A stretch of 44,122 nucleotides of DNA from Candidatus Rokuibacteriota bacterium. Lineage in GTDB: Bacteria > Methylomirabilota > Methylomirabilia > Rokubacteriales > CSP1-6. Under the pieces are notes generated by a model. That model was given only the letters and a program-made list of their open reading frames with translations, had not been told where the DNA came from and did no database searches. Shown in pieces: positions 4,185 to 42,953 of this stretch. The position numbers were made by a program, and so were the translations under genes. The stretch covers positions 1 to 44,122 of the forward strand of contig JACPCH010000031.1 in NCBI GenBank assembly GCA_016179875.1, in the 5' to 3' direction. Each line of letters opens with the position of its first letter. Positions within the stretch are counted from its first letter, which is position 1.

Positions 4185-5012
4185 TTGAAAAATCGGCGGC
4201 CCGTCCGGAGCGCCCCTCTCGCGAAGATCGGCCGAGCCTCTCTCGATCGGCCGCTTCCGCCGCTCTACTACCGCGTCTCGCGCACCCTGGAGCAACGGAT
4301 CCGCGACCAGCACTCCAGGGTCGGCGACCGGCTGCCCTCCGAGGACGACCTCTGCCGCGAGTTCGGGGCGAGCCGCATCACGATTCGGCAGGCGGTGGGG
4401 CGGCTGGTGGAGCAGGGGCTCATCGTCCGCCGGCGGGGTAGCGGGTCGTTCGTGAGCGCGGTCAAGGAGCCCCGGGCGGCGACGCCGAGCAAGTTCACGG
4501 GCGCGCTCGAGGACCTCTTCGCCGAGGTCAAGGCGGTGCGCACCAAGTCCGCCGAGATCGTCGAGGAGGTCCCCCCCGCCGAGGTGCGCGTCCTCCTCGG
4601 CCTCGGGGTGCAGGAGACGGTGGCGGTGGTCCGCCGGGTCCGCACCTTCCGGGACCGCATCTTCTCGCTCTCGACGAACTACCTCCCCCGGAGCCTCGGC
4701 GCCCAGCTCAGCGAGAGCGAGCTTTACCAGTACCCGCTGCTGCAACTTCTGGAGGAGAAGCTCCACGTCACCTTCCGGTACGCCGACCAGACCGTGGAGG
4801 CGCGGCTCGCCGACGAGGACGTGGCGCGGGCCCTCGACGTCAACTTCGGGGACCCGGTGCTGTTCGTGGAGCGCCTGATGTTCGCGGAGGCGGCCCGCCC
4901 GGTCGAGGTCGTCCGGTCCTACTACCGGGCGGACGTCTACCGCTACCAGATCCGGCTGGTGCGCAACCGCAAGGCACCGTTCCACTGGCGCCTCCATGAC
5001 GACGTGAGATGA
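4185..5012 (+). CDS. GntR-family transcriptional regulator, HutC subfamily (wHTH + UTRA)
   Basis: PLYYRV...GDRLPSEDDLCREFGASRITIRQAVGRLVEQGLIVRRRGSGSFV is a GntR HTH. C-terminal UTRA region (ADQTVEARLAD...PVEVVRSYYRADVY). Start placed at TTG 4185, downstream of the promoter; the track start 4083 lies upstream of the promoter. Confidence 0.93.
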   Translation: MKNRRPVRSAPLAKIGRASLDRPLPPLYYRVSRTLEQRIRDQHSRVGDRLPSEDDLCREFGASRITIRQAVGRLVEQGLIVRRRGSGSFVSAVKEPRAATPSKFTGALEDLFAEVKAVRTKSAEIVEEVPPAEVRVLLGLGVQETVAVVRRVRTFRDRIFSLSTNYLPRSLGAQLSESELYQYPLLQLLEEKLHVTFRYADQTVEARLADEDVARALDVNFGDPVLFVERLMFAEAARPVEVVRSYYRADVYRYQIRLVRNRKAPFHWRLHDDVR

Positions 5013-5048
5013 CCAGGTCGTAACGATCGACCAACACCGGAGGACACG

Positions 5049-6191
5049 ATGAAGAGGCTGGCCGCGTTGCTCGTGCTTCCCCTCCTGGCGCTCCTCGGGG
5101 TCGCCGGATCCGCGCTCGCCCAGGAGACCTACAAGGTCGGCGCCGTGCTCTCGATCACGGGGCCGGCCTCCTACTTCGGCGAGGACGAGCGCAACACGCT
5201 GATGCTGCTGCAAGACCAGATCAACGCTCGGGGCGGCATCAACGGCAAGAAGCTCGAGGTCGTGATCTACGACGACGCCACCGACCCCACCAAGAGCGTC
5301 ACCGCGCTCAAGCGGTTGCACGAGGAGGACAAGGTGCTGGCCGTGATCGGTGCCAGCATCAGCGGCAACGCGCTCGCGCTCATCCCGTTCTCCGAGAAGG
5401 CGGGGGTGCCCCAGCTCGTCCCCGCCGCCAGCGGCAAAATCTCGAACCCCGTGAAGAAGTGGGTCTTCCAGTTCTGCAACACCGACGTGCAGTCCATCGC
5501 CCGCATCCTCGGCTTCCTCCAGGCCAAAGGCGTCAAGAAGATCGCCATGCTGAACGACTCCACCGGCTACGGCGTGAGCGGCAAGGAAGAGCTGGACCGT
5601 CAGGCACCGGGCAAGGGCTTCGAGGTCGTCGCCGCCGAGACGTTCGGGCCCAACGACACCGACATGACGCCCCAGCTCACCCGCATCAAGGCGGCGGGGG
5701 CGCGGGCGGTGATCGTCTGGAACGCGACGCCGGCCAGCGCCATCGTCGCGAAGAACTTCAAGCAGATCGGCCTCGACGCGCTCCAGATCCAGAGCACGGC
5801 CTTCGTGAGCCCCCGGCTCCTGAGCCTGGCCGGCGCCGCCGCCGACGGCATCATCCTCACCGGCTACAAGCTCCCGATCGTCGACCAGGTGCCGGCGAGC
5901 GACCCCCAGCGGAAGATCATCGTCGAGTACCGCGACGCGTACCTGAAGCGCTTCGGGAAGGAGCCGAACCCGTTCGGCGCCCTCGTCCACGACGCGTTCA
6001 CGGCGCTGGTCAAGGTGCTGGAGACGGCCGGCGTCGACCGCGAGAAGATCCGCCAGGGCCTCGAGAGCCTCAAGGGGTTCATGGGCGCCAACGGCACCTA
6101 CACCACCTCCGCCACCGATCACAACGGGTACGCGGTGGAGAGCCTCCAGATGCTGGTGGTGGAGACGGGGAAGTTCAAGCCCGTCCACTGA
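5049..6191 (+). CDS. ABC transporter substrate-binding protein, LivJ/LivK (HAAT) type
   Basis: Signal peptide ending ALA-Q; KVGAVLSITGPAS...INARGGINGKKLEVVIYDD; RBS GGAGG. Confidence 0.93.
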   Translation: MKRLAALLVLPLLALLGVAGSALAQETYKVGAVLSITGPASYFGEDERNTLMLLQDQINARGGINGKKLEVVIYDDATDPTKSVTALKRLHEEDKVLAVIGASISGNALALIPFSEKAGVPQLVPAASGKISNPVKKWVFQFCNTDVQSIARILGFLQAKGVKKIAMLNDSTGYGVSGKEELDRQAPGKGFEVVAAETFGPNDTDMTPQLTRIKAAGARAVIVWNATPASAIVAKNFKQIGLDALQIQSTAFVSPRLLSLAGAAADGIILTGYKLPIVDQVPASDPQRKIIVEYRDAYLKRFGKEPNPFGALVHDAFTALVKVLETAGVDREKIRQGLESLKGFMGANGTYTTSATDHNGYAVESLQMLVVETGKFKPVH

Positions 6192-6197: not shown

Positions 6198-7079
6198 ATG
6201 ACCTTCACGGATCAGCTGCTCCAGTTCGTGCTCTCTGGCGTGATGGTCGGCAGCATCTACGCCCTCATCGCGCTCGGGTTCACGATGGTCTTCAACGCCA
6301 CCGAGGCGATCAACTTTGCCCAGGGCGAGTTCGTCATGCTGGGGGGAATGAGCGCGGTCGCCTTCTACGGGGCGAGGGTGCCGCTCCCCCTCGCCTGCCT
6401 CCTGGCCGTCCTCCTCGTGACCGCGGTCGGGCTCCTCTTCGAGCGCTTCACGCTCGCCCCGCTCAAGCGCGTCTCGGTCATGAACCTGATCATCATCACC
6501 ATCGGCGGCTCGATCTTCCTCAAGGGCTCGGCCATGCTGACGTGGGGGAAGGACGCGGCCAGCCTGCCCTCCTTCTCCGGCGACACCCCCATCCGCGTCC
6601 TCGGCGCCACACTCCTGCCCCAGGCGATCTGGATCCTGGGCACGAGCCTGGTCGTCGTCGCCGCCGTCCGCCTCTTCTTCGACCATGCCGCCGTCGGCAA
6701 GGCCATGCGGGCCGTCGCCGCCAACCGCTTCGCGGCGACCCTGATGGGGATCGACGTCAAGCTCATGGTGGCCTGCTCGTTCGCGCTCAGCGCGGCGGTG
6801 GGTGCCGTCGCCGGCATCATCATCACGCCGGTGGCGCTCACCGCCTTCGACCGGGGCACCATCCTGGGGCTCAAGGGCTTCAGCGCCGCCATCCTGGGCG
6901 GGATCGGGAGCGGCCCCGGCGCGGTGCTCGGCGGGCTGCTCCTTGGCGTGCTGGAGGCCATGGGCGCTGGCTTCGTCTCCTCCGGCTACAAGGACGCGAT
7001 CGCGTTCCTCCTCCTCATCCTCATGCTGCTGGTCCGCCCCCAGGGGCTCTGCGGGGCGCGGGGAAGCCGCAAGGCCTGA
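6198..7079 (+). CDS. livH: HAAT ABC transporter permease (LivH-like)
   Basis: GSIYALIALGFTMVF...INFAQGE; GKAMRAVA; LKGFSAAILGG. Confidence 0.93.
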   Translation: MTFTDQLLQFVLSGVMVGSIYALIALGFTMVFNATEAINFAQGEFVMLGGMSAVAFYGARVPLPLACLLAVLLVTAVGLLFERFTLAPLKRVSVMNLIIITIGGSIFLKGSAMLTWGKDAASLPSFSGDTPIRVLGATLLPQAIWILGTSLVVVAAVRLFFDHAAVGKAMRAVAANRFAATLMGIDVKLMVACSFALSAAVGAVAGIIITPVALTAFDRGTILGLKGFSAAILGGIGSGPGAVLGGLLLGVLEAMGAGFVSSGYKDAIAFLLLILMLLVRPQGLCGARGSRKA

Positions 7080-7080
7080 G

Positions 7081-8079
7081 ATGTCGGTGCCGGCCCCGGA
7101 CCCCACGCGGCTCCCGCACCGGGCGGCACTCGCCGTGTTCCTCTTCCTGATCGCGCTGCTGCCGCTTGCCGTTCCCAGCCGCTACTACCTGAACGTCATG
7201 ATCTTCGCCGGCATCCACGTGCTCCTCACCGTGGGCCTGAACCTCGTCATGGGCTACGCGGGGCAGGTCTCGCTCGGCCACGCCGGCTTCTACGGCCTCG
7301 GGGCGTACGCCTCCGGCGTGCTCACGGTGAAGTACGGCGTGAACCCCTGGGTGGCCATGGCCGCCGCGCTCGGCCTGAGCCTCCTCGTCGGCCTCGCCAT
7401 CGGCATCCCGTCACTCCACCTCCAGGGCTACTACCTGGGCATGGCGACGCTCGGCTTCGGCATCATCCTCCACATCCTGTTCGTGGAGCTCCTGCCGTTC
7501 ACGGGCGGGCCCTCGGGCCTCGTCGGCATCCCCGAGATCTCCCTGCTCGGCGTCAAGCTCAACACCGACACGCGCTACTACTACCTGGTCTGGGTCGTGG
7601 TCGGTGCCGTTCTCCTCTTCGCCTTCCACCTGGTGGACTCGCGCGTGGGCCGGGCGCTCCGGGCCATCCAGGGCGACGAGACGGCGGCGGCTCTGATGGG
7701 GATCAACACCTGGCTCGCCAAGGTCCGCATCTTCGTCACCGCGGCTGCCTTCGCCTCCGTGGCCGGCAGCCTCTACGCCCACTACGTGACGTTCCTGAGC
7801 CCCGACAGCTTCGGGTTCGGGTTTTCGATCGACCTGATCGTCATGGTGATCGTGGGCGGCACTCGGAGCATCTGGGGCAGCGTGCTCGGCGCCGTGCTCC
7901 TCACGATCCTGCCCGAGTATCTCCGGGGGCTGAAGGACTACGACATTCTCGTGTACGGCGCGGTGGTGATCCTGGTCGTCATGTTCGTCCCGTCCGGGAT
8001 CGCGGGGGCCATCGAGCAGCGCCTCCAGCGCTGGCGTCTCAAGCTGGCGACCCGGGCGCGGGTGGCGGCGGACGCATGA
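7081..8079 (+). CDS. livM: HAAT ABC transporter permease (LivM-like)
   Basis: GLNLVMGYAGQVSLGHAGFYGLGAY; SRVGRALRAIQGDETAA; ATG at 7081. Confidence 0.93.
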   Translation: MSVPAPDPTRLPHRAALAVFLFLIALLPLAVPSRYYLNVMIFAGIHVLLTVGLNLVMGYAGQVSLGHAGFYGLGAYASGVLTVKYGVNPWVAMAAALGLSLLVGLAIGIPSLHLQGYYLGMATLGFGIILHILFVELLPFTGGPSGLVGIPEISLLGVKLNTDTRYYYLVWVVVGAVLLFAFHLVDSRVGRALRAIQGDETAAALMGINTWLAKVRIFVTAAAFASVAGSLYAHYVTFLSPDSFGFGFSIDLIVMVIVGGTRSIWGSVLGAVLLTILPEYLRGLKDYDILVYGAVVILVVMFVPSGIAGAIEQRLQRWRLKLATRARVAADA

Positions 8080-8856
8080 AGGCGGGCGGGGGCGGAGCCT
8101 TGCTGGAGGCGCGCGGGCTGGAGAAGTCGTTCGGCGGCCTCCGCGCCGTGAACGGCGTCAGCCTCACGGTCGCGCCGGGGACGATCAAGGCCATCATCGG
8201 CCCGAACGGGGCCGGAAAGACCACGCTCCTGAACCTGATCACGCGGCTCGACGCGCCGAGCGCGGGCGAGATCTGGTTCGACGGTGTCCGCATCGACCGC
8301 CTGCCGCCCCATCGCATCGTCCAGCTCGGCGTCGCTCGCACCTTCCAGAACCTGCGGCTCTTCGGCGACATGAGCGTGCTGGAGAACGTGATGGTCGGGC
8401 GGCACGTCAGGACGCGGACGGAGATGGCGGGCGCGGTGTTGCGGCCGGCGGCGGCCCGCGCGGAGGAGCGCGCGATCTTCGCCGACGCCCTGCGGCTCCT
8501 CCACGACGTGGGGCTCGCCGAGCAGGCCCACGAGGCCGCCGCCAGCCTGCCCTTCGGCAAGCAGCGGCTCCTCGAGATCGCGCGCGCGCTCGCCTCGGAG
8601 CCGCGGCTGCTCCTCCTCGACGAGCCGGCGGCGGGGCTCAACGTCCGGGAGGCGGCGGAGCTCGGGGAGTTCATCCGGCGCATCCGGCTGGCGGGGATCA
8701 CCATCATCCTGGTCGAGCACCACATGGAGCTGGTCATGGAGATCTCCGACGAGATCCTCGTGCTCAACTTCGGCGAGAAGCTGGCCGAGGGGCCCGGCGA
8801 GGAGATCCGCACGCGGCCCGAGGTCATCCAGGCCTATCTCGGCGACGAGGCGGCGA

Positions 8857-8879
<23 letters not shown>
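8076..8879 (+). CDS. livG: HAAT ABC transporter ATPase (LivG-like)
   Basis: Walker A GPNGAGKTT, ARTFQN, LLLLDEPAAG, VEHHM. Confidence 0.95.
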
Positions 8880-9564
<685 letters not shown>

Positions 9565-9581: not shown

Positions 9582-10457
9582 ATGAAGCCGGCGCCATTCG
9601 AGTACGTGACCGCGGAGACCACGGAGGCCGCCGTCGCCGCCCTCGAGCGGTTCGAGGGCAACGCCCGCTGCCTGGCGGGCGGCCAGAGCCTGGTGCCGCT
9701 CCTCAACATGCGCCTGCTGCGGCCGGCGGCCGTGATCGACCTGAACCGCCTCTCCGGCCTCGATCACGTAACGGTGGACGACGGTCGGGTCCGCGTGGGC
9801 GCCCTCGTCCGCTACTCGACGCTCGAAACCTCCGCGCTCGTGGCGGAGCGGATCCCGCTCCTGGCCCGCGCGGTGCCGTTCGTGGGCGACCGCCAGATCA
9901 GGAACCGCGGGACGCTGGGCGGCGCCCTCTGCCACGCCGACCCCGCCGGCGAGATGGCTCTCGCCGCGGTGACCCTCGGCGCCTCCCTCCGCGCCGTCGG
10001 CCCGGACGGTGTGCGCGAGGTCCCCGCCGACGACTTCTTCCAGGGCCCGTACACGACGGCCCTCGCGCCGGCCGAGGTGCTCACGGAGGTGGCCTTCCTC
10101 GACGGCAGGGGAGCGGTGGCCGCCGTCGCCGAGCACGCGCGGCGCCACGGCGACTTCGCCATCGTCGCCATCGCCGCGGCCGGCCTCCCCGGCCCCGGCG
10201 ACTCGTGGCGGTGGGTGAGGATCGGCCTCGGTGGTGTCGCCCCGCGTCCGCTCTACGCCGCGCGCGCCTCCGCGCTGCTCGCCGGCACCCGGCTCGAGCC
10301 GAAGGCCGTCCGGGCCGCAGCGGAGGCGTGCCTGGCCGACGCCGATCCCGCGTCGGACATCCGCGCCTCCGCCGAGTACCGGCGCCACCTGATCCCCGTC
10401 TTCGTGGAGCGCGTGCTCGCCGAGTTGCGCGAGCGGCGGCGAGGAGGGACGCGATGA
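9582..10457 (+). CDS. Molybdenum hydroxylase FAD-binding (medium, CoxM/CutM-like) subunit 1
   Basis: MKPAPFEY, LAGGQSLVPLLNMR, IRNRGTLGG..CHADP, RRHGDFA. Confidence 0.95.
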   Translation: MKPAPFEYVTAETTEAAVAALERFEGNARCLAGGQSLVPLLNMRLLRPAAVIDLNRLSGLDHVTVDDGRVRVGALVRYSTLETSALVAERIPLLARAVPFVGDRQIRNRGTLGGALCHADPAGEMALAAVTLGASLRAVGPDGVREVPADDFFQGPYTTALAPAEVLTEVAFLDGRGAVAAVAEHARRHGDFAIVAIAAAGLPGPGDSWRWVRIGLGGVAPRPLYAARASALLAGTRLEPKAVRAAAEACLADADPASDIRASAEYRRHLIPVFVERVLAELRERRRGGTR

Positions 10458-10942
10458 GCTCGCGCCACCGGATCCGGGTCACCGTCAACGGGCGGGCCTA
10501 CGAGCGTGACGTGCAGGGGCGGCGGCTCCTGGTGGACTTTCTCCGGCACGACCTCGGCCTCTACGGGACGCACGTCGGCTGCGAGCAGGGCGTGTGCGGC
10601 GCCTGTACGGTCCTCCTCGACGGCCAGGTAGTGAAGTCCTGCCTGATGCTCGCCCCCCAGGCCGACGGCCGCACGCTCACTACCGTGGAGGGCCTGGCGG
10701 GGCGGGGCGAGCTCCACCCCGTACAGGAGGCGTTCCGCGAGGCCCACGGCCTCCAGTGCGGCTACTGCACGCCGGGGTTCCTCCTGAGCGCCGTGGCCCT
10801 GGCCGACCGCGGCGTCGTCCTCGAGGGAAAGAGCCTCCGGGCGGAGCTGGCTGGCAACCTCTGCCGGTGCACGGGCTACCAAAACATCGTCGAGGCCGTC
10901 GAGCGATACCTGCGGCAAACGGTGGGAAGTCGCCGTGGATAA
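10454..10942 (+). CDS. Molybdenum hydroxylase 2x[2Fe-2S] (small, CoxS-like) subunit 1
   Basis: [12 protein letters not shown]...[18 protein letters not shown]; ATGA overlap with the upstream stop. Confidence 0.95.
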   Translation: MSSRHRIRVTVNGRAYERDVQGRRLLVDFLRHDLGLYGTHVGCEQGVCGACTVLLDGQVVKSCLMLAPQADGRTLTTVEGLAGRGELHPVQEAFREAHGLQCGYCTPGFLLSAVALADRGVVLEGKSLRAELAGNLCRCTGYQNIVEAVERYLRQTVGSRRG

Positions 10943-13314: not shown

Positions 13315-13770
13315 ATGCAGATCCAGGAGACATTCACGGTGGCGGCGCCGCCGGAGACGGTGTGGACGTTCTTCGAGGACGTCCAGCGCGTGGCGCGCTG
13401 TGTGCCCGGCGTCCAGACGATCGACGTCCTCGGGCCCGACCGCTACCGGGTGGTGGCGTCGCACAAGGTCGGCTTCATCTCGGCCACGTTCGAGCTGACG
13501 ACCGCGGTGGCGGCGAAGGAGCCGGGGAAGTTCATGGAGTTCACGTCCGTCGGCAAGAGCGTCAAGGGCGCGGTCGGCGACCTGCGTTCCCGGGACCGGG
13601 TGGACTTCGAGCCCGCGCCCGGGGGCGGCACCCGGGTGCGGCTCACGTCGGAGGTGGCGGTGGGAGGGATGCTGGGCGCCCTCGGCCACAAGGCCATCAT
13701 CGGCAAGTCGCGCGAGATCACCGAGAAGTTCGCGGAGAGCCTCCGCGCGGCGATCTCGGCCTCGGCATGA
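13315..13770 (+). CDS. coxG: CoxG/SRPBCC-family protein
   Basis: FTVAAPPETVW..F.DVQRVARCVPG...VGGMLGALG; follows an M-S-L set. Confidence 0.88.
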   Translation: MQIQETFTVAAPPETVWTFFEDVQRVARCVPGVQTIDVLGPDRYRVVASHKVGFISATFELTTAVAAKEPGKFMEFTSVGKSVKGAVGDLRSRDRVDFEPAPGGGTRVRLTSEVAVGGMLGALGHKAIIGKSREITEKFAESLRAAISASA

Positions 13771-26733: not shown

Positions 26734-26740
26734 ACGAATC

Positions 26741-26820
26741 GCCTGTCGAGCCGCGTCCCGGGTCCCCCGGGGCGCGTGCGAGCGCTGGGGGGCTTGGGGG
26801 GCCCGTCGAGGCCCCCCATG
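26741..26820 (+). repeat. REP/MITE-like intergenic element, copy 2
   Basis: CGAG-N3-TGGGGGGCT-TGGGGGGCC-CGTCGA-GGCCCCCCA, a perfect 9-bp stem; GCCTGTCG upstream as in copy 1. Confidence 0.55.
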
Positions 26821-26843
26821 TCCTCAGAGAGGGAAGTGACGCG

Positions 26844-34413: not shown

Positions 34414-35421
34414 ATGCACGTCGACATCCACGCCCACGTGATCCCGCGCCCGTACCTCGAGCGGGTGCGGCGCGGGGACGTCCCGGGGGTGCGGATCGAG
34501 GTGGGCGATGCCGGGGGGGAGGTCATGAGCGTGGCCGGCGGCGGCCCGACCGGCCCCGTCGCCCAGCGCTTGGCCCTGGCCCCGGGCTACCACGACGCGC
34601 GCGCCCGCGTGGCGGAGATGGACGCGGCCTCGGTCGACGTCCACGTGCTCTCGCCGCTCCAGTTCCTCTTCCACTACTGGATCGACGCGAAGGCGGCGGC
34701 AGAACTGGCACGCCTGGTGAATGACGGCATCGCCGAGATGGTGGGCGAGCGGCCGGACCGCTTCGTGGGCATGGCCACCCTCCCGCTCCAGGACATCGGT
34801 GCCGCCGTGGGCGAGCTGGAGCGCGTCCACCGGGACCTCGGCCTGCGCGCCGTCGAGATCGGCACCCACGTCGCGGGGACATCGCTGGATGCCCCCGCGC
34901 TCGACCAGTTCTGGGCGCGCGCCGAGGCGCTCGAGACCCTGATCTTCGTCCACCCCTACGCACCGCTCGGCGCCGACCGTCTCGGCGCGTACTTCCTGCG
35001 CAACATCCTGGGCAACCCATTCGAGACAGCGCTCGCCATGAGCCATCTCCTGCTCGGCGGCGTCCTCGAACGGTTCCCCGGGCTCCGGCTCTGCTTCGCC
35101 CACGGCGGGGGGGCGATGCCGTACGTGATCGGGCGCCTGGAGCGGGGGTTCGACGTGAGCCCGGCCTGCCGGGCGAAGGCCGCGGAGCGGCCGGCCGCCG
35201 CCCTCGGGCGTGTGTACTACGACACGATCGTCCACGACGCGCCCGCCCTCGAGTACCTGATCGCGCGCGTGGGCGCCTCCCGGGTGCTCCTGGGGAGCGA
35301 CTATCCCTTCGACATCGGGGATCCGGACCCGGTGCGCACGGTGGAGAAGCTCGGGATCGACCGCGGGGCGAAGCGCGCGATCCTCGGCGGCAACGCCGCC
35401 GCGCTCCTCCACCTCGGCTAG
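34414..35421 (+). CDS. Amidohydrolase_2 family protein (ACMSD / isoorotate / aromatic-acid decarboxylase-like)
   Basis: VDIHAH, IFVHP, AHGGG..P...GRL, YYDT, LGSDYPF. Confidence 0.92.
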   Translation: MHVDIHAHVIPRPYLERVRRGDVPGVRIEVGDAGGEVMSVAGGGPTGPVAQRLALAPGYHDARARVAEMDAASVDVHVLSPLQFLFHYWIDAKAAAELARLVNDGIAEMVGERPDRFVGMATLPLQDIGAAVGELERVHRDLGLRAVEIGTHVAGTSLDAPALDQFWARAEALETLIFVHPYAPLGADRLGAYFLRNILGNPFETALAMSHLLLGGVLERFPGLRLCFAHGGGAMPYVIGRLERGFDVSPACRAKAAERPAAALGRVYYDTIVHDAPALEYLIARVGASRVLLGSDYPFDIGDPDPVRTVEKLGIDRGAKRAILGGNAAALLHLG

Positions 35422-35434: not shown

Positions 35435-37774
35435 ATGGCGGGGCGATGGGTCGGCGCGCGGCTCCGGCGAAAGGAGGATCAGCGGCTCCTCACCGGGTCG
35501 GGGAGGTTTCTGGCCGACCTCCGGCTGCCGGGGATGCTCTCCGCCGTCATCGTCCGCAGCCCGCACGCCCACGCGCGCATCGTCGCGATCAACGCCGCCC
35601 GGGCCCGGGCCGAGCGCGGCGTCGCCGCCGTGTTCATCGGACCCGACCTCGGCGCCGTCGGCCGGATCCCCATGCGCATGTCGCCGCGGGCCGAGGTGGT
35701 CGAGTGCCTGCAGCGCCCGCTCGCCCTCGGTCGCGTCCGCTACGTCGGCGATCCGGTAGCGGTCGTCGTCGCCGAGGATCGGTACCGGGCCGAGGACGCG
35801 GCCGAGCTGGTGGAGATGGACCTCGAGCCGCTCCCGGTGGTCACGGAGGCGCGGCAGGCGCTCGAGCCGGGCGCGCCCGTCGTGCACGAGTCGCTCGGCC
35901 GAAACCTCGCGGAGCGGCTCGTCATGGGGTGCGGCGAGCCCGAGCGGGCCCTCCGGGAGGCGCCGGTGCGTGTGCGCGACCGGTTCAAGGTCCACCGCCA
36001 CACCGGCGTGCCTCTGGAGACGCGCGGGCTCCTCGCCCAGTTCGAGCCGGGCACAAGCGCCCTCACCGTGTGGGGCCCGACCAAGGTGCCGCACTTCAAC
36101 CGAGGCGTGCTGTCCGACCTCCTTGGCTGGCCCGAGCATCTGGTGCGGTTCGTCGAGACCGACGTGGGCGGGGGGTTTGGGATCCGCGGCGAGTTCTACC
36201 CGGAGGACTTCCTGGTCCCGTGGGCGGCGATGCGCCTCCGGCGGCCGGTGCAGTGGGTCGAGGACCGGCGCGAGCACCTGCTCGCGGCCAACCACTCCCG
36301 CGAGCAGCTCCACGAGATCGAGATCGGCGCGGACAGGGACGGCCGGATCGTCGCGCTCGTGGACCGGATCTACGCGGACATGGGGGCCTACATCCGGACG
36401 CACGGGTTCGTCGTGCCCGACCGCACGGCGGCGATGCTGCCCGGCCCCTACCGGATCCCGAACTACGGCGCCGAGGTCCTCTGCGCCTTCACGAACAAGA
36501 CGCCCTGCGGGACGTATCGGTCGCCTGGCCGCTACGAGGGGACGGTGGTCCGCGAGCGGATCGTGGACCGGCTGGCCGGCGAGCTCGGCCTCGACCCGGC
36601 CGAGGTGCGCCGGCGCAACTTCGTGTCGCCCGCCGACATGCCCTACGACGTGGGCGCGACCGCCGACTACGATCCCGTCGTCTACGACAGCGGCGACTTC
36701 CGGGGCGCGTTCGACGCGGCGCTGGAGGCCGCCGACTACGAGTCGCTCCGGAACCGCCAGGCGGAGGCGCGCCGGGAGGGGCGCTCGGTCGGCATCGGGA
36801 TCGGCTGCTTCGTCGAGAAGTCGGGCACCGGCCCCTGGGAGCACGCGCGGGTCGAGATCGACGGATCGGGGCGGGTGGTGGTTTTCACCGGACTCGCTTC
36901 CCTCGGACAGGGCCTCGAGACGACGCTCGCGCAGATCTGCGCAGACGAGCTCGGCGTGCATCCGGACGACATCACCGTCGTCCACGGCGACACGGCGCGG
37001 ATCCCGTACGGCGTGGGGACGTTCGGGAGCCGGGGTGCGGTCGTCGGCGGCAACGCCGTGGCCCAGGCGGCGTCCGCGCTGCGGGAACGGATCAAGTCGT
37101 TCGCTGCCCTGCGGCTCGAGCTGAGCCCCGAGGACCTCGTGCTCGACGCCGGGCGCGTCCACCCGCGCGGCGTCCCCGACCGGGGGCTCACGCTCCGAGA
37201 GCTCGCCCGGGCGGCGGCGCCCGGTCAACCGCTGCCGCCCGGCCTCGAGCCCGGGCTCAGCGCCAGCGCGATCTTCAAGGCGCCCATGCGGGTCTATCCC
37301 TACGGGACGCACGTGGCGACGGTGGAGGTGGACCCGGAAACGGGACGGGTGACGGTCATGCGCTACGTGATCGCCTATGACATCGGGCGCGCCATCAACC
37401 CGATGATCGTCGAGGGGCAGCTGGCCGGCGGTCTCGCCCAGGGCCTCGGGGGGGCGCTGCTCGAGGAGCTCGTCTATGACGAAGGGGGGCAGCTCCTGAC
37501 GACCACCTTCATGGACTACCTCCTGCCGACGGCCATGGAGATGCCGGAGGCGACCGTGATCCACGTGCTCGAGAAGTCGCCGTCCCCGCTCAACCCGCTC
37601 GGCATCAAGGGCGCGGGCGAGGGAGGGTGCACGGGCTCGGGGGCGGCCCTCGCCAACGCCGTCGCCGACGCGCTGGCTCCGCTGGGCGTCGCGGTGACGG
37701 GCCTGCCGCTCACGCCGGCGACGATCGTCGCCTCCATCCGGGCGGCGGCGTCGCGGCGGGAGGCGCGTCGATGA
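35435..37774 (+). CDS. Xanthine-oxidase-family molybdopterin-binding large subunit L3
   Basis: RKEDQRLLTG, RHTGVPLE, WGPTKVPH, VGGGFGIRGE, loop TYRSPGRYE, GTFGSR, KGAGEGG. Confidence 0.95.
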   Translation: MAGRWVGARLRRKEDQRLLTGSGRFLADLRLPGMLSAVIVRSPHAHARIVAINAARARAERGVAAVFIGPDLGAVGRIPMRMSPRAEVVECLQRPLALGRVRYVGDPVAVVVAEDRYRAEDAAELVEMDLEPLPVVTEARQALEPGAPVVHESLGRNLAERLVMGCGEPERALREAPVRVRDRFKVHRHTGVPLETRGLLAQFEPGTSALTVWGPTKVPHFNRGVLSDLLGWPEHLVRFVETDVGGGFGIRGEFYPEDFLVPWAAMRLRRPVQWVEDRREHLLAANHSREQLHEIEIGADRDGRIVALVDRIYADMGAYIRTHGFVVPDRTAAMLPGPYRIPNYGAEVLCAFTNKTPCGTYRSPGRYEGTVVRERIVDRLAGELGLDPAEVRRRNFVSPADMPYDVGATADYDPVVYDSGDFRGAFDAALEAADYESLRNRQAEARREGRSVGIGIGCFVEKSGTGPWEHARVEIDGSGRVVVFTGLASLGQGLETTLAQICADELGVHPDDITVVHGDTARIPYGVGTFGSRGAVVGGNAVAQAASALRERIKSFAALRLELSPEDLVLDAGRVHPRGVPDRGLTLRELARAAAPGQPLPPGLEPGLSASAIFKAPMRVYPYGTHVATVEVDPETGRVTVMRYVIAYDIGRAINPMIVEGQLAGGLAQGLGGALLEELVYDEGGQLLTTTFMDYLLPTAMEMPEATVIHVLEKSPSPLNPLGIKGAGEGGCTGSGAALANAVADALAPLGVAVTGLPLTPATIVASIRAAASRREARR

Positions 37775-38649
37775 AGCCGCCCCGCTTCGAGTATTTCGAC
37801 CCGACCACCGTGGAGGCCGCGCTCGACCTCCTCGGCGAGCACGGCGAGAACGCGAAGGTCCTCGCCGGCGGCCAGAGCCTGATGCCGCTCCTCAACTTCC
37901 GCCTCATCCGCCCCCAGGTCCTCGTGGACCTGAACGGCATCGGCGCGCTCGCCTACGTGCGGCCCTGTGACGGCGGCCTCGCCCTCGGCGCCCTCACGCG
38001 GCAGCGCGCGCTGGAGCGCTCCGCGGTCGTGCGCGAGCGCTGCCCGCTCGTAGCGCAGGCGGTGCCGTTCATCGGCCACGCCGCCATTCGCAATCGCGGG
38101 ACGATCGGAGGCACGCTCGCCCACGCCGACCCCGCCGCCGAGCTGCCGGCGGTCGTCACCGCCCTCGGGGGAACGCTGGTGCTCAGGAGTATCCGGGGCG
38201 AGCGCGTGCTGCCGGCCGACCGGTTCTTCGTCTCCTACCTCACGACGGCGGCGGCGCCGGACGAGATCCTGGTGGAGGTGCGGCTGCCCGGCGCGGGTTC
38301 GCGCACCGGCTCGGCCTTCCAGGAGGTGAGCCGGCGCCACGGCGACTTCGCCCTCGTCGGCGTCGCGGCGATCGTCTCGCTCGGCGCCGACGACGTCTGC
38401 ACGGCGGCGTCGGTCGCCGTGGCCGGCGTGGGGCCGGTGCCCCTCCGCGTCGATGACGCCACGCGCCTGCTCCTCGGCGAGAAGCCCGACGAGCGGACGC
38501 TCGCCGAAGTGGGACGGCGCGTCTCCGAGCAGCTCACGCCCGACGCGGACCTCCACGCCTCCAGCGAGTATCGAAAGCAGGTCGCCGGCGTGCTGGCCCG
38601 GCGGGCGCTGGGCGAGGCCCTCGGCAAGGCCCGAGGAGGCGGCGCATGA
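37771..38649 (+). CDS. Molybdenum hydroxylase FAD-binding subunit 3
   Basis: MKPPRFEY, LAGGQSLMPLLNFR, IRNRGTIGG.LAHADPAAE, RRHGDFA. Confidence 0.95.
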   Translation: MKPPRFEYFDPTTVEAALDLLGEHGENAKVLAGGQSLMPLLNFRLIRPQVLVDLNGIGALAYVRPCDGGLALGALTRQRALERSAVVRERCPLVAQAVPFIGHAAIRNRGTIGGTLAHADPAAELPAVVTALGGTLVLRSIRGERVLPADRFFVSYLTTAAAPDEILVEVRLPGAGSRTGSAFQEVSRRHGDFALVGVAAIVSLGADDVCTAASVAVAGVGPVPLRVDDATRLLLGEKPDERTLAEVGRRVSEQLTPDADLHASSEYRKQVAGVLARRALGEALGKARGGGA

Positions 38650-39149
38650 CGGAGCGAACGATCCGGCTCAGCGTGAACGGACGGGAGTACGAGCGCCGGG
38701 TGGCCGTGCGCTGGACGCTCGCCGACTTCCTGCGCGACGAGCTCGGCCTCACCGGCACCCACCTCGGCTGCGAGCACGGCGTCTGCGGCGCCTGCACCGT
38801 CGTGATGAACGGCGCTGCCGTGCGCTCCTGCCTCCTCCTCGCCGTCCAGGCGCAGGGCGCCGAGATCCGGACGGTGGAGGGGCTCGCCGACGGCGACACG
38901 CTCCACCCGCTGCAGGAGGCGTTCTGGGAGCATCACGGGCTCCAGTGCGGCTTCTGCACGCCGGGGATCCTCATGAGCTTCGCCTGCTTCCTCGAGGAGC
39001 ACCCCGCGCCCTCCGACGCCGAGATCCGCGAGGCGCTCGCCGGGAACCTCTGCCGCTGCACCGGCTACGTGAACATCGAGCGTGCGGTGCGGGCGGCGGT
39101 GACGAAGCTGGCCGGCGGGCGCGCGGGGGCGGGGCCGACGGGCGCGTGA
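38646..39149 (+). CDS. Molybdenum hydroxylase 2x[2Fe-2S] subunit 3
   Basis: [12 protein letters not shown]...[18 protein letters not shown]. Confidence 0.95.
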
Positions 39150-41464
39150 GCCGCTACGTCGGCCAGCCGGTCCGGCGCAAGGAGGACCCGCGGCTCCTCA
39201 CAGGGTCCGGCCGGTACGTGGGCGACGTCCGCCTCGGCGGCCTGCTCCACGCCGCAATCTTCCGGAGCCCGCTCCCTCACGCGCGCATCGTGAGGGTCGA
39301 CGGGAGCCGGGCGCGGGCCTTGCCCGGCGTGATCGCCGTCTTCGCGCCGGGCGATCTCGGGGAGGTCGCCCCGATCCCGACGACGCTCGCGCCGCGCCCG
39401 GCGCTCAAGGCCTGCTTCCAGCCGCCGATGCCGCGGGACCGCGTCCGCTACGTCGGCGAGCCCCTCGCCGTCGTGGTGGCCACCGACCGCTACGTGGCGG
39501 AGGACGCGCTCGAGCTGATCGACGCCGAGCTGGAGTCGCTGCCCGTCGTCGCCGACGCGCGCCGCGGCCTCGCGCCGGAGGCACCGATCCTCCACGAGGC
39601 GCTCGGGACCAACCTGGCCGACCGCATCGTGATGAGCCGCGGCGACGTCGAGCGCGCGCTGCGAGAGGCGCCCCGGCGCATCCGCGGCGCGTTCGCGGTC
39701 CAGCGCCACACCGGCGTCCCCATGGAGGGGCGGGGCCTCCTCGCCGCCTTCGACCGGGGCACCGGCGTCCTCACCGTGTGGGGCCCGACCAAGATGGTCC
39801 ATCGCAACCGCTCGATCCTGGCCGATCTCCTGGGCTACCCCGAGCACCTGATCCGGTTCATCGAGACGGACGTCGGCGGCGGATTCGGCCTGCGCGGGGA
39901 GTTCTACCCCGAGGACTTCCTGATCCCGTGGGCGGCCATGCGGCTCCCCGCGCCCGTCCGCTGGCTCGAGGACCGCCGCGAGCACTTCCTCGCCACCAAC
40001 CACTCCCGGCAGCAGTGGCACGAGGTCGAGATGGGCGTCGCGCCCGACGGCGCCATCCTGGCCTTCACCGACCAGGCGCTCGTCGACATGGGCGCCTACG
40101 TCCGCCCCAACGGCTTCGTCGCCCCCGATCGCACCGCGGCCTTCCTGCCGGGACCTTACCGGATCGAGCACTACGCGTTCGAGATCGCGTGCGTCTTCTC
40201 CAACAAGACGCCCGTCGGCTCCTATCGCGGGCCGGGCCGGGTGGAGAGCACGTTCGTCCGAGAGCGGCTCATCGACCTCGTCGCCCGCGAGCTCGGCCTG
40301 GACCCGGTGGACGTCCGCCGCCGCAACTTCATCGAGGCGGGAGCGATGCCGTACGCGGTCGGCACCACCGCGCACGGCCGGCCCGTCGTCTACGACAGCG
40401 GCGACTATCGCGCCGCATTCGAGGCCGCGCTCCGCGAGCTGGATCTCGAGGCCGCGCGCAAGCGCCAGGCCGAGGCGCGACGGCAGGGCCGCTACCTGGG
40501 GATCGGGTTCGCCTGCGTCGTCGACTCCTCCGGCGTGGGGCCCTGGGAGAGCGCGCGGGTGGTGGTGGATCGGACCGGCCAGGTCGTCGTCTACTCGGGC
40601 ACGGCCGGGCTCGGCCAGGGCATCGAGACGACCCTGGCCCAGGTCTGCGCCGACGCCCTCGGCGCCCGGCTCGAGGACGTCACCGTGGTCCACGGCGACA
40701 CCGGCCTCATCCCGTTCGGCATCGGCTCCTTCGGGAGCCGTGCCGCCGTCGTCGGCGGGAGCGCGGTGTTCGAGGCGGCGCGGAAGGTGAGGGAGAAGGC
40801 CGTCCGCATCGCGGCGCGGCTCCTCGAGGCCGACCCCGGCGACCTGGTCCTGGAGGACGGCCGGGTGACCGTCCGCGGGGTGCCGGACCGGGCGCTCACG
40901 CTTCGCGATCTGGCGCGGGCGGCGCTGCCGGGCCAGCCGCTCCCGGCGGGGATGGAGCCGGGGCTCGAGGCCACGCACTACTTCCACATCACGGACGTGA
41001 CCTATCCGTACGGGATGGACGCAGCGCTGGTCGAGGTCGATCCGGAGACGGGCATGGTGCGCGTCCTCAAGTACGTGATCGTCGCCGACGTGGGGCGGAT
41101 GATCAACCCGCTGATCGTCGACGGCCAGATGGTCGGGGGGATGGTGCAGGGGCTGGGGGCGGCGCTCCTGGAGGAGCTCGCCTACGACGAGGGGGGCCAG
41201 CTCCTCACCACGACCTTCATGGACTACCTCTTGCCCACCGCCGCCGAGCTCCCCGCCGAGGTCGTGGTCCGCGTGACCGAGGCCGCGCCCTCGCCCGGGA
41301 ACCCGCTCGGCGTGAAGGGCGCGGGTGAGGGCGGCATCATCGCCGTGCCGGCGGCGGTCGCCAACGCCGTCGAGGACGCCCTGGCGCCGTTCGGCGTCAC
41401 GGTGACCGCGCTGCCGCTCAGCCCCGACCGCGTCCTCGGGCTCGTGCGCGCTAGTCGCCGATGA
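39146..41464 (+). CDS. Xanthine-oxidase-family molybdopterin-binding large subunit L4, paralog of L3
   Basis: GTG start overlapping the upstream stop; RHTGVPME, WGPTKMVH, loop SYRGPGRVE, GSFGSR, KGAGEGG. Confidence 0.95.
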   Translation: MSRYVGQPVRRKEDPRLLTGSGRYVGDVRLGGLLHAAIFRSPLPHARIVRVDGSRARALPGVIAVFAPGDLGEVAPIPTTLAPRPALKACFQPPMPRDRVRYVGEPLAVVVATDRYVAEDALELIDAELESLPVVADARRGLAPEAPILHEALGTNLADRIVMSRGDVERALREAPRRIRGAFAVQRHTGVPMEGRGLLAAFDRGTGVLTVWGPTKMVHRNRSILADLLGYPEHLIRFIETDVGGGFGLRGEFYPEDFLIPWAAMRLPAPVRWLEDRREHFLATNHSRQQWHEVEMGVAPDGAILAFTDQALVDMGAYVRPNGFVAPDRTAAFLPGPYRIEHYAFEIACVFSNKTPVGSYRGPGRVESTFVRERLIDLVARELGLDPVDVRRRNFIEAGAMPYAVGTTAHGRPVVYDSGDYRAAFEAALRELDLEAARKRQAEARRQGRYLGIGFACVVDSSGVGPWESARVVVDRTGQVVVYSGTAGLGQGIETTLAQVCADALGARLEDVTVVHGDTGLIPFGIGSFGSRAAVVGGSAVFEAARKVREKAVRIAARLLEADPGDLVLEDGRVTVRGVPDRALTLRDLARAALPGQPLPAGMEPGLEATHYFHITDVTYPYGMDAALVEVDPETGMVRVLKYVIVADVGRMINPLIVDGQMVGGMVQGLGAALLEELAYDEGGQLLTTTFMDYLLPTAAELPAEVVVRVTEAAPSPGNPLGVKGAGEGGIIAVPAAVANAVEDALAPFGVTVTALPLSPDRVLGLVRASRR

Positions 41465-42953
41465 TCTGCGCGAGGGCGCGCTCGAGCTCGGCGCGCGCCG
41501 CGGCGAGCGGGGCCTGGCGCGCCTCGAGCCGCGCGCGATCGGCCGCGACCTGGCTCGCCGCCCGCCCGATTGCCTCGCGCACCGTGTCGGGCGCGGGACC
41601 GCCGAGGTGGCGCCGGCGGCCGACGCTGGCCTCGGGATCGAGCGCGTCGCGCACCGTGGCCTCGTCGAGCGCAATCGGCCGCCCGGCTCGCGCGCCGGCC
41701 ACGGCGTTGACCCGGTCGGCGTGGATCGACTCCGGGCCGTGGCCGACGTCCACCGCCTCCCGCACCAGGACCGCGCAGATCTCGTGCGCCACCCGGAAGG
41801 GCAGGTCACATTCGCGGACGAGGGCGTCGGCGAGGTCGGTGACGGTGGAGAAATCCGCGGCGGCGCGGGCCCGGCCGACGTCGGGACGGAAGCTGATCGC
41901 GTCGAGGACGGCCGTGATGAGGGCGAGCATCACGCCGAGCGCCCGCTCGGCCTCCCCGAGCGGCGCCACCACTTCCACCGAGGTGTCGCGCGAGTGCATG
42001 AAGTGGGTGCCCTTGGTCGCCGTCAGCGCCGCCGCCAGCGCGCCCACCACCGCGCCCGCCCGCCCCTTGACGTGCTCGATCGCCGCCGCGTTCTTCTTCT
42101 GCGGCATGATGCTGCTGGCGATGGCGACCGCCCCGCTCACGTCCGCGTAGCCCAGCTCGGTGGAGGACCAGAGGTAGAGGTCCTCGGCCAGGCGCGCGAG
42201 CATCAGCGCGAGCCCCGCGAAGCCGCTCAGGATCTCGAGCACGTAGTCGCGCGAGGCCACCGCGTCGAGCGCGTTGGCCAGGGGGCGGGCGAAGCCGAGG
42301 AGCCGGGCCATGAGCTCGCGGTCGATCGAGAAGGACGTGCCGGCCAGGGCGCCGGCGCCCAGCGGGCACAGGTCGACGCGCGCGTGGGCATCCCAGAGCC
42401 GCTCCCAGTCCCGCGCGACCGCCCGCTCCACGCCGGCGAGGTAGAACCCGATGGTGATCGGCTGCGCCGGCTGGAGGTGCGTGTAGCCCGGGATGATCGT
42501 CTCCGCGTGCCGGCCGGCCAGCGCCAGGAGGCGCTCGCGGAGGTCGAGGATCGACGCCGCGGTCCACCCGAGCAGCGCGCGCGCGTTCATGCGCGCCACC
42601 GTGGCCCCGAGATCGTTCCGGCTCCGGCCGAGGTGTATGCGCCCGGCCGCGTCCTCGCCCACCGCCTCCCGCACCGCGAATTCCAGATTCGCATAGAGGT
42701 CCTCGCGGGCAGGGTCGAGCCGTTCGGGAGCGAGGCCCTCGCGCTCGATCCGGCGCAGCGCGCTCCCAACCAGCCGCGCCGCCTCCGGCTGGATCAGCCC
42801 CTGCCGGTGCAGCATGACCAGGTGGGCCTTGCTCGCGTCGATCAGGGCGCCGAGCGACGATGCCGCATCGGCGACGAGGCGCGGCCCGAGCACGGTGTCG
42901 ATGAACGCCTGACCAAGGGCCTCCCGCACGCGCTCACGCACGGCGGCTATCAT
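41451..42953 (-). CDS. argH: Argininosuccinate-lyase-like C-N lyase (fumarase/aspartase superfamily), divergent
   Basis: HLGRSRNDL, PGYTHLQPAQP, PLGAGALAG, signature SSIMPQKKN. ATG at 42953 gives 500 aa; converges on L4 with a 14-nt overlap. Confidence 0.85.
   Translation of the reverse strand: MIAAVRERVREALGQAFIDTVLGPRLVADAASSLGALIDASKAHLVMLHRQGLIQPEAARLVGSALRRIEREGLAPERLDPAREDLYANLEFAVREAVGEDAAGRIHLGRSRNDLGATVARMNARALLGWTAASILDLRERLLALAGRHAETIIPGYTHLQPAQPITIGFYLAGVERAVARDWERLWDAHARVDLCPLGAGALAGTSFSIDRELMARLLGFARPLANALDAVASRDYVLEILSGFAGLALMLARLAEDLYLWSSTELGYADVSGAVAIASSIMPQKKNAAAIEHVKGRAGAVVGALAAALTATKGTHFMHSRDTSVEVVAPLGEAERALGVMLALITAVLDAISFRPDVGRARAAADFSTVTDLADALVRECDLPFRVAHEICAVLVREAVDVGHGPESIHADRVNAVAGARAGRPIALDEATVRDALDPEASVGRRRHLGGPAPDTVREAIGRAASQVAADRARLEARQAPLAAARAELERALAQIIGD

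Follow-up and report, generated by a model that had tools for sequence, protein, structure and literature searches.

The 44,122 bp contig JACPCH010000031.1 of Candidatus Rokuibacteriota carries an array of 35 genes that we predict, from sequence, to take up and degrade one or a few related N-heterocyclic compounds, most likely carboxylated and/or aminated. We give this prediction an even chance, and we are similarly divided as to whether the array is a genuine catabolic super-operon. The window analysed is the entire contig (C274), which belongs to a genome (G000) of 3.33 Mb in 288 contigs that is 77% complete. All 35 genes lie on the + strand between positions 4185 and 41464 and comprise a GntR/UTRA regulator and 34 others, among them importers, molybdenum (Mo) hydroxylases, luciferase-like oxidoreductases (LLMs), amidohydrolases, a family III CoA-transferase and a two-subunit B12 mutase. 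The evidence consists of gene order, protein families, intact motifs, conservation of modules among relatives and gene associations that recur elsewhere. An earlier reading of this DNA (the original prediction) had described one 35-gene unit. This is partly supported: the structure is operon-like, but the array is a mosaic, and a nine-gene core of it occurs without the accessory modules in 4 genomes and in all 14 closely related metagenome loci. The array appears to have been built by inserting accessory modules into this conserved core. Its features, with the gene names used below, are as follows.

4132..4200, no strand: AT-rich island, minimum GC 0.30 in 40 nucleotides (nt), with TTGACA and repeated GTTAT; abuts the regulator gene
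4185..5012, + strand: GntR-family regulator with UTRA domain, HutC subfamily type (UTRA 109 bits, GntR 65 bits)
5049..6191, + strand: binding protein SBP1, Peripla_BP_6, of the first ATP-binding cassette (ABC) importer, ABC#1 (Pfam)
6198..7079, + strand: ABC#1 permease, BPD_transp_2 (Pfam)
7081..8079, + strand: ABC#1 permease, BPD_transp_2 (Pfam)
8076..8879, + strand: ABC#1 ATPase (Pfam)
8857..9564, + strand: ABC#1 ATPase (Pfam)
9582..10457, + strand: M1, FAD subunit of Mo hydroxylase 1, core (Pfam; orthologues 58-71% identical in core loci)
10454..10942, + strand: S1, 2x[2Fe-2S] subunit, core (8 Cys; orthologues 79-84% identical)
10935..13295, + strand: L1, Mo large subunit, core (Pfam; catalytic Glu motif present)
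13315..13770, + strand: CoxG/SRPBCC protein, core (Pfam; conserved between L1 and L2 in relatives)
13767..14966, + strand: CoAT, family III CoA-transferase, inserted module (Pfam, 434 bits)
14977..16590, + strand: MutL, acyl-CoA mutase large subunit (PF01642, 676 bits)
16562..17038, + strand: MutS, B12-binding small subunit (DxHxxG motif present as DGHDMG)
17035..17910, + strand: M2, FAD subunit of Mo hydroxylase 2, core (291 amino acids; orthologues 65-72%, adjoining L2 in relatives)
17907..18401, + strand: S2, 2x[2Fe-2S] subunit, core (Pfam)
18398..19780, + strand: Hyd, ATP-independent cyclic amidohydrolase of D-hydantoinase/dihydropyrimidinase type, inserted module (TIGR02033)
19799..20941, + strand: binding protein SBP2, Peripla_BP_6, of importer ABC#2 (Pfam)
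20973..21836, + strand: ABC#2 permease (Pfam)
21833..22819, + strand: ABC#2 permease (Pfam)
22816..23592, + strand: ABC#2 ATPase (Pfam)
23579..24283, + strand: ABC#2 ATPase (Pfam)
24403..26733, + strand: L2, Mo large subunit, core (Pfam; orthologues 71-76%)
26734..26843, no strand: intergenic repeat of about 95 nt, REP/MITE-like and GC-rich, at the L2|CMD seam
26844..27227, + strand: CMD-family protein (carboxymuconolactone decarboxylase/AhpD-like), inserted module (54 bits; alternative start 26730)
27247..28551, + strand: CDA, CodA-like amidohydrolase of the cytosine deaminase family, inserted module (HxH motif present)
28574..29614, + strand: LLMa, luciferase-like oxidoreductase, core (orthologues 73-78%; 74% identical to LLMb)
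29664..30704, + strand: LLMb, luciferase-like oxidoreductase, core (Pfam)
30701..31477, + strand: ATPase of importer ABC#3, NitT/TauT type (Pfam)
31488..32258, + strand: ABC#3 permease (Pfam)
32303..33340, + strand: SBP3a, NMT1/SsuA-type binding protein (54% identical to SBP3b)
33363..34412, + strand: SBP3b, NMT1/SsuA-type binding protein (Pfam, NCBIfam)
34414..35421, + strand: AH2, Amidohydro_2, ACMSD-like, probable decarboxylase (human ACMSD, 218 bits)
35435..37774, + strand: L3, Mo large subunit (63% identical to L4)
37771..38649, + strand: M3, FAD subunit (Pfam)
38646..39149, + strand: S3, 2x[2Fe-2S] subunit (Pfam)
39146..41464, + strand: L4, Mo large subunit (Pfam, NCBIfam)
41451..42953, - strand: argininosuccinate-lyase-family paralogue, convergent (366 bits; overlaps the end of L4 by 14 nt; start uncertain)

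Genes were called from frame analysis of GC content at third codon positions (GC3) together with inspection of start codons. The window has 71% GC and a GC3 near 95%, and both GC3 and codon usage are even along the whole array. Of the 34 junctions, 15 overlap, among them CoxG>CoAT, MutS>M2, M2>S2 and S2>Hyd by 4 nt each, and the widest spacers measure 119 and 110 nt. No longer run of same-strand genes occurs in the genome, in which runs average 2.5 genes according to a crude gene caller. Only three AT-rich islands occur in the 44 kb window, and positions 4200-43357 contain none. The length of the run and the lack of an internal AT-rich island argue that the array is more than a chance arrangement. 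The island at 4132-4200 is a candidate promoter/operator for the array, which is probably co-transcribed under control of the GntR/UTRA regulator. This regulator reached none of the NCBIfam equivalog cut-offs, and its TTG start is uncertain. A scan of the window for consensus promoters returned 0 promoter-like sites (0.3 and 0.5 expected) and did not call the island at 4132-4200, and a scan for terminators returned 2 and 3 terminator-like sites against 4.9 and 3.5 expected; both scans were uninformative. No riboswitch, other RNA family or tRNA was found in searches of the window. The original prediction placed 35 closely packed, co-oriented genes behind a regulator; the array is real, but the regulator is itself one of the 35.

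All of the enzyme and transporter families named in that prediction were recovered in scans against Pfam (40 proteins) and NCBIfam (20 proteins). The Mo hydroxylases are represented by four large, three FAD and three 2Fe-2S subunits plus CoxG, and the importers by two Liv-type and one NitT/TauT-type ABC systems with four binding proteins. Sequence motifs are intact, and the enzymes of the array look functional: MutS has its DxHxxG, Hyd and CDA each have HxH, L1 to L4 all carry the catalytic Glu motif, and each S subunit has 8-9 Cys. Save at a generic dihydropyrimidinase model, no catabolic enzyme of the array attains an equivalog cut-off. The original prediction had named, as evidence that would speak against it, assignment of all of the enzymes to one characterised pathway; the key enzymes score below equivalog cut-offs, with the exception of the dihydropyrimidinase (narrowly) and the argH paralogue.

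The substrate, the order of steps and all of the chemistry of the proposed route are predictions. The substrate would be imported through the three ABC importers, and the CodA-like deaminase would strip an exocyclic amino group where one is present. The ACMSD-like AH2, together with L3, L4, M3 and S3, may then hydroxylate and decarboxylate a ring carboxylate. L1-M1-S1 (with CoxG) and L2-M2-S2 would add water-derived oxygen beside the ring nitrogen to give a cyclic amide or imide, and the F420-type LLM pair may tune the redox state of the ring. The ATP-independent hydantoinase would open the ring hydrolytically, the family III CoA-transferase would shift CoA from succinyl-CoA to the substituted dicarboxylate, and the B12 mutase would rearrange the carbon skeleton to a succinyl- or malonyl-CoA-type product. 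The scheme finds support in the large Mo subunits of the core, L1 being nearest to an N-heterocycle hydroxylase (Qor) and L2 to an aryl-CoA enzyme. Its central succession of Mo hydroxylation, ring opening, CoA transfer and B12 rearrangement, which had been proposed before, gains further support from the recurrent gene associations described below.

The core of the array is the compact block LLMb-M1-S1-L1-CoxG-L2-M2-S2-LLMa, which is found in relatives complete or in whatever part the contig covers. A metagenome scan with L2 followed by tblastn mapping gave 14 close loci (L2 71-76% identical), and four genomes of the same family but of different genera (G223, G021, G169 and G201) added further loci. 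Proteins of the block are 66-84% identical to those of the window (58-71% for M1 orthologues). In the window the core is interrupted three times: by CoAT-MutL-MutS between CoxG and M2, by Hyd and ABC#2 between S2 and L2, and by CMD and CDA between L2 and LLMa. CoAT, the mutase, Hyd, ABC#2, CMD and the deaminase are neither in nor beside the block in any of the 14 metagenome loci or the four genome contigs. A DNA search of 159 family genomes, with two candidates scored per genome, likewise found no match across CoxG>CoAT, MutS>M2 or S2>Hyd. A neighbourhood search for a conserved core, as suggested earlier, thus yielded a nine-gene Mo/LLM unit, but one from which the mutase, CoAT and hydantoinase are absent.

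The flanks of the core vary. They include an Opp-type ABC transporter in G223, a PotD-type binding protein with an ADP-forming acyl-CoA synthetase in loci L079 and L054, and an asparaginase-like gene, another binding protein and an AH2 homologue (37% identical) in G021. In G201 (locus L137, contig C1, 10500-19500) L1, L2 and LLMb are each in two pieces in different frames, which reflects either pseudogenes or long-read assembly errors. The last part of the array has its own distribution: AH2 and L3 are contiguous in 15 published family genomes (for example G123:C5, G160:C284 and G161:C276), and M3-S3-L4 forms a separate block in several family genomes, at about 70% nucleotide identity. AH2 is apparently placed between M-S and L in G160.

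Pairings of the kind proposed recur in clusters that are otherwise different. We identified 66 metagenome loci with a distant L2 (41-48% identical). All 23 of those with more than 3.3 kb of upstream sequence carry a cyclic amidohydrolase, of allantoinase/dihydroorotase/hydantoinase type, directly before M-S-L, and a cyclic amidohydrolase is also found beside M-S-L2-type genes in genome G014. From these 23 loci and G014 we conclude that an L2-type hydroxylase with a ring-opening amidohydrolase is a recurrent design. The distant loci also carry a GntR regulator, a PotABC-like importer and a UbiD decarboxylase. They form a widespread soil cluster (L102, L098, L116 and 63 other metagenome loci, and L135 on G014:C37). 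In L102, this cluster comprises a UbiD-family decarboxylase, a PotABC-like importer, a FadR-type GntR regulator, a cyclic amidohydrolase, M-S-L and a beta-propeller protein; its L subunit is 46% identical to L2 and its amidohydrolase is allantoinase/dihydroorotase-like.

A second cluster in the same genome, on contig C157 (1-19500; loci L139 and L140), is nearer to the iaa genes and had been missed by the original prediction. It encodes, in order, a thiolase, a 3-hydroxyacyl-CoA dehydrogenase, an Amidohydro_1 protein, a DUF35/ChsH2-type protein, MutS (54%), MutL (51%), an L2-like Mo subunit (38%), CoAT (55%), an octopine-dehydrogenase-like protein, a V4R protein, a glyoxalase-fold (epimerase-like) protein, the ATP-dependent hydantoinase A and B subunits, and a Liv ABC importer. 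The L2-like large subunit stands alone, with no adjoining M or S subunit. Because C157 clusters a Mo enzyme, a CoA-transferase and a mutase, these three appear to belong together in this lineage. In six proteobacterial loci, Hyd-like and LLM genes are neighbours of a NitT/TauT ABC importer. These loci (L020, L021, L024, L025, L026 and L045) are from metagenome-assembled genomes, with the Hyd-like protein 40% and the LLM 44-47% identical; they also carry a MocR-type regulator, an aminotransferase, MmgE/PrpD, an NMT1-type binding protein and, in L026, an M20 peptidase.

Homologues of three of the modules also appear to be linked in another organism. SBP3b has homologues of 92% and 80% identity in a large protein collection. 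The entries P0004 (MutL, 87%), P0122 (Hyd, 87%) and P0242 (SBP3b, 80%) each list a longest contig of 91,570 bp, and one Hyd homologue and one SBP3 homologue both list a contig of 4,201 bp. Orthologues of the mutase, Hyd and SBP3b thus probably share one 91,570 bp contig, which suggests that at least one further organism has the extended arrangement. Modules that never co-occur elsewhere had been named as contrary evidence in the original prediction; these orthologues (80-87% identical), on contigs of equal length, point the other way.

Several observations weigh against a single route encoded by a single unit. The core was found alone, and the accessory genes therefore appear not to be needed for its function. 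The gene families concerned are expanded in the genome, with 16 loci for Mo large subunits, 17 for family III CoA-transferases and 8 mutase large subunits; the 12 further Mo loci, 16 CoA-transferases and 7 mutases make a chance neighbourhood likelier. That there are three importers, and four binding proteins of two kinds, points to several substrates. In the window, Pfam identified no amidase or carbamoylase to follow ring opening, no epimerase, no chaperone of MeaB or XdhC type and no enzyme that would take up the product of the mutase. The shared 91,570 bp contig is deduced from equal sizes alone. Finally, the multicopy repeat at the L2|CMD seam could punctuate transcription.

These points would fit a juxtaposition of at least three independent modules, each with its own substrate and with at most a shared promoter, a possibility to which we attach limited weight. 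Its parts would be the Mo/LLM core, a dicarboxylate CoA-transferase and mutase, a hydantoin/dihydropyrimidine-type module with its own importer, and AH2-L3/L4. Each of them is found alone elsewhere: the core in the 4 genomes and 14 metagenome loci, Hyd-LLM-ABC in Proteobacteria, AH2-L3 and M3-S3-L4 in many family genomes, and CoAT with the mutase in multi-mutase clusters of the same genus, on contigs with no Mo or hydantoinase genes. In these clusters (L011 on G001:C264, L013 on G002:C152 and L014 on G003:C19) up to four mutase large subunits, small subunits included, occur consecutively and end in a CoA-transferase. The three importers, the mobile-looking repeat at one seam and the heavy expansion of the families in the genome agree with such a history. 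However, the insertions lie inside the core, not beside it, and are joined to it by 4-nt overlaps at CoxG>CoAT, MutS>M2 and S2>Hyd; a single AT-rich, promoter-like island precedes the array; the pairings of a Mo enzyme with an amidohydrolase, and of a Mo enzyme with a CoA-transferase and mutase, recur independently; and orthologues of three of the modules are probably on one contig in another organism. We retain the catabolic super-operon as our working reading.

The mutase is the most distinctive enzyme of the array. It shares PF01642 and a separate DxHxxG B12 subunit with the MCM family (MCM, ICM, HCM and ECM). Alignment to 4r3u and 2xij, together with a table of paralogues, shows that MutL keeps a Tyr (RQYAGF) and an Arg (ARGTH), which we take to be the residues that bind the free carboxylate in MCM. 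MutL has SGGH in place of the SGYH of MCM and HCM, a change of the pocket Tyr to Gly, and FAGGGGS replaces their H-x-Q-T motif. The signature SGGH/FAGGGGS is the same in 10 of 10 close homologues (78-96% identity) from a large protein collection, one at 96% and nine more at 78-87%; the best match among representative proteins is 56% identical. AGAH and another replacement motif characterise a sister subclade (57-60% identical), to which same-genus copies beside a CoA-transferase belong; one same-genus mutase pair (57-59% to MutL) has Ala at the position of the pocket Tyr. Sequence comparison thus places the window mutase in a conserved, uncharacterised subclade with a predicted enlarged pocket. 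Plain MCM was rejected, given the pocket Gly, the replaced Q-T motif and a score of 593 bits against the MCM equivalog cut-off of 876 (PRK09426). HCM (Ile, Asp) and ICM (Phe, Gln) were rejected as well, MutL having Tyr, Ala and Arg at these positions, whose roles in MCM/HCM/ICM specificity we assume. Since MCM-like (C139), ICM-like (C173) and HCM-like (C203) paralogues are already present in the genome, the window mutase appears to provide an additional specificity. We propose tentatively, and would expect to be wrong more often than right, that the SGGH/FAGGGGS mutase defines a new substrate class for bulky heterocycle-derived dicarboxylyl-CoA and that the whole array is one regulon for an undescribed N-heteroaromatic route. 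Such a route would need no O2, its oxygen being derived from water, and no ATP, with succinyl-CoA as a recycled CoA donor.

The nearest solved structures give some indication of the roles of the Mo enzymes. L1 is nearest to the large subunit of quinoline 2-oxidoreductase (1t3q_B, 558 bits) and scores below all NCBIfam cut-offs; it shares with Qor the three-subunit M/S/L make-up and the catalytic Glu motif, a likeness by structure match and not an established orthology. CoxG, a second Mo enzyme and LLMs accompany L1 in all relatives, a linkage that we do not know of for qor. L2 is nearest to the alpha subunit of 4-hydroxybenzoyl-CoA reductase (1rm6_A, 391 bits) but scores 582 bits against the cut-off of 994.55 for that subunit. 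HcrB, the enlarged FAD subunit of the reductase, has an extra insertion that binds an Fe-S cluster; M2, with 291 amino acids and 4 Cys, is of the same length as M1 and has no insertion. CO dehydrogenase was considered and rejected for L1, L3 and L4, which score 645, 698 and 712 bits against 950 (NF040766; for L3, 698 bits against the cut-off of 950 for CODH group 5) and 528-554 bits against 991 (TIGR02416). Their Y-R loops do not match what we take to be the active-site signatures of CoxL.

CoAT is nearest to SUGCT among solved structures (9br6, 302 bits) and scores 313 bits with the succinate-glutarate CoA-transferase model against a cut-off of 750; by sequence it is closest to the succinyl-CoA-dependent dicarboxylate transferases. 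Hyd passes TIGR02033 narrowly (408 bits, cut-off 393) and matches solved D-hydantoinases at 266-293 bits (4tqt, 293). Its best match in 250 other genomes of the phylum is 52% identical, and since the common copy of the family is just 46-52% identical, Hyd appears to be a distinct paralogue. Metagenome homologues include one at 99% and nine more at 79-90%; a scan of genome contigs with Hyd gave 33 loci, the best at 46% identity, and no orthologous cluster. The two LLMs fall just short of the F420-type model TIGR03619 (LLMa 160.5 and LLMb 165.0 bits, cut-off 166.9) and have no close relative among solved structures; a gene for F420 ligase is present in the genome (237 bits). No paralogue of the CMD-family protein was found in the genome.

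CDA matches E. coli CodA at 284 bits. CodA proper was rejected for it, with 362 bits against 438 (PRK07572) and 339 against 483 (PRK09230). The deaminase and Hyd together recall an oxidative pyrimidine route, in which (5-methyl)cytosine would be converted through uracil or thymine and (methyl)barbiturate to (methyl)malonate and then succinyl-CoA, with the hydantoinase opening the ring in place of barbiturase. We regard this as unlikely. It would account for the CodA-like deaminase, for the dihydropyrimidinase model that is reached, for the Tyr and Arg retained in the mutase (succinyl-CoA being both donor and product), and for SBP3-type binding proteins of the NMT1/THI5 type, a family that we take to bind pyrimidine-like ligands. 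Nevertheless, the window has no candidate for AtzD/barbiturase, ureidomalonase or amidase. The mutase differs in its pocket from the MCM-type paralogue (SGGH against SGYH), which argues against plain methylmalonyl-CoA, and four Mo large subunits, the LLM pair and AH2 would be left unexplained. According to PMC3758960 and PMC4051656, barbiturase belongs to the AtzD/cyanuric-acid-hydrolase family, a family absent from the window by Pfam. PF09663 was not found in the genome, a weak result since the genome is 77% complete and the control matched in no genome. In comparison with hydantoin and reductive pyrimidine degradation, the window lacks a dihydropyrimidine dehydrogenase, a carbamoylase and a beta-ureidopropionase by Pfam.

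Among solved structures, SBP1 is nearest to 3sg0, 4dqd, 3tx6, 4jb0 and 3ukj (100-120 bits), which we take to be binders of aromatic acids, and SBP2 to Leu/Ile/Val-type binders (3td9, 136 bits). The likeness of SBP1, with its presumed ligands, is one of the features that might be expected of an iaa-type pathway, in which indole, oxindole or another aryl-fused lactam would lead to an arylsuccinyl-CoA, from which the mutase would form an arylmethylmalonyl-CoA. A bulky substituent of this kind would find room in the enlarged pocket of the mutase. The iaa pathway employs an XDH-family Mo enzyme and an ATP-dependent ring opener of hydantoinase/oxoprolinase type. By the description in PMC8360864, iaa of Aromatoleum aromaticum shares with the array binding-protein uptake, a family III CoA-transferase (IaaL) and a two-subunit B12 mutase (IaaGH) that acts on substituted succinyl/malonyl-CoA, and the pathway opens with an AMP-forming indoleacetate-CoA ligase, IaaB. 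The array has the same four enzyme types as iaa (PMC8360864), the CoA-transferase and the two-subunit mutase being present at the level of the family. We nonetheless find an iaa-type pathway very improbable. The AMP-binding ligase domain of IaaB is not in any of the 36 cluster proteins (Pfam), and IaaF, the decarboxylating benzylmalonyl-CoA dehydrogenase, which falls in the acyl-CoA dehydrogenase family, was not found in the window. The differences from iaa listed in the original prediction are correct: the Pfam scan of the window shows no acyl-CoA dehydrogenase, beta-oxidation gene, AMP-forming ligase or ATP-dependent Hydantoinase_A/B. In place of hydantoinase A/B, which C157 possesses, the window has an ATP-independent cyclic amidohydrolase. 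A deaminase, Amidohydro_2, the LLM pair, CMD, three Mo large subunits and two importers are extra to the iaa set, and the genome already has a far more iaa-like cluster in C157.

Other known systems resemble single parts of the array. The pic cluster pairs a Mo dehydrogenase with an Amidohydro_2 decarboxylase, and the window likewise pairs a Mo enzyme with Amidohydro_2 in AH2-L3; genes for a ring-cleavage dioxygenase, deformylase and maleamate amidase are absent from the window by Pfam. Furoyl-CoA dehydrogenase hydroxylates beside the heteroatom, and ring hydrolysis follows, according to PMC3223595, a logic that parallels L2 and the hydantoinase of the window. Unlike the HcrA and furoyl-CoA systems, the window contains no CoA ligase or thioesterase. 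Specific substrates, namely pyridine di- or monocarboxylates via cyclic imides, pyrroles via succinimides, imidazoles via hydantoins and thymine via methylbarbiturate, were also considered, and the data could not discriminate among them.

Given a fragmented metagenome-assembled genome of 288 contigs with many paralogues, the array might be an artificial join of paralogous Mo-hydroxylase loci that belong to related strains. We consider this extremely unlikely. Independent assembly contigs (Logan) bridge the key junctions, and GC3 and codon usage are uniform. Contigs of run X2, whose study is also that of the possible source sample, span CoxG>CoAT>MutL (13530-15174) and MutS>M2>S2>Hyd>SBP2>perm2a (16707-21888). 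In run X5, which belongs to another study, a contig of 97.4% identity spans S2>Hyd>SBP2 (18201-20063), and the CoAT>MutL and M2>S2 junctions are likewise bridged by independent Logan contigs. As far as tested, the array is not an assembly chimera. Near-identical pieces of it occur in four metagenome runs from four studies, two of groundwater, one of soil and one of sediment; one of these may be the source study.

The 110-nt spacer between L2 and CMD is a repeat, about 95 nt long and strongly folding (-65.3 kcal/mol, z = -2.69), of which the genome has 6 nearly complete copies (96-98% identical) as well as partial ones. Metagenome depth at the repeat is 1599 and 1257 in two runs, against about 20-40 alongside, and the repeat has no match in Rfam. 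Its copies, which form a double hairpin, lie on contigs C99, C65, C195, C114, C121, C134 and others.

Literature searches found no described counterpart of the system, in agreement with the original prediction that it is undescribed, and no paper on this combination of genes; subscription journals were mostly uncovered by these searches, and a prior description is possible. The logic and the enzyme families are known, and the double-hydroxylase/LLM core, the mutase subclade and the assembled array appear to be undescribed. N-heterocycles such as nucleobase derivatives, pyridine carboxylates, alkaloids and tetrapyrrole fragments are a major part of the N-containing organic matter of soil and groundwater, and some are pollutants. 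To our knowledge, hardly any pathways for these compounds have been described except from cultured Proteobacteria and Actinobacteria, and the lineage of this locus, which is uncultured, is found widely in metagenomes of groundwater, soil and sediment. The locus offers three leads: a conserved nine-gene unit with two Mo hydroxylases and two LLMs; a conserved mutase subclade for which a new B12 rearrangement is predicted from the altered pocket; and an example of the assembly of a large catabolic operon by module insertion, with a multicopy repeat at a seam. Identification of the mutase substrate would lengthen the short list of acyl-CoA mutase reactions and would be of interest for pathway engineering.

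The convergent C-N lyase reported in the original prediction is present at 41451-42953 (-) and is a paralogue of ArgH. A housekeeping ArgH role was rejected for it, its score being 366 bits compared with 611 for the canonical argH on C148, and no match to it was found among the 150 listed family DNA matches. Its membership in the system is uncertain; this ArgH-family paralogue may act on a pathway intermediate as a C-N lyase, or may be unrelated. Upstream of the regulator, positions 1900-4130 have a lower GC (0.66), are poorly coding and include a second AT-rich island (3230-3315); ORFs at 650-1873 (+) and 2152-2904 (-) gave no match in Pfam, and a search of 1800-4400 for repeats gave just short matches that are probably due to chance. 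The gene at the right end of the window is up to 88% conserved in the family and, for that reason, appears to be a housekeeping-type neighbour.

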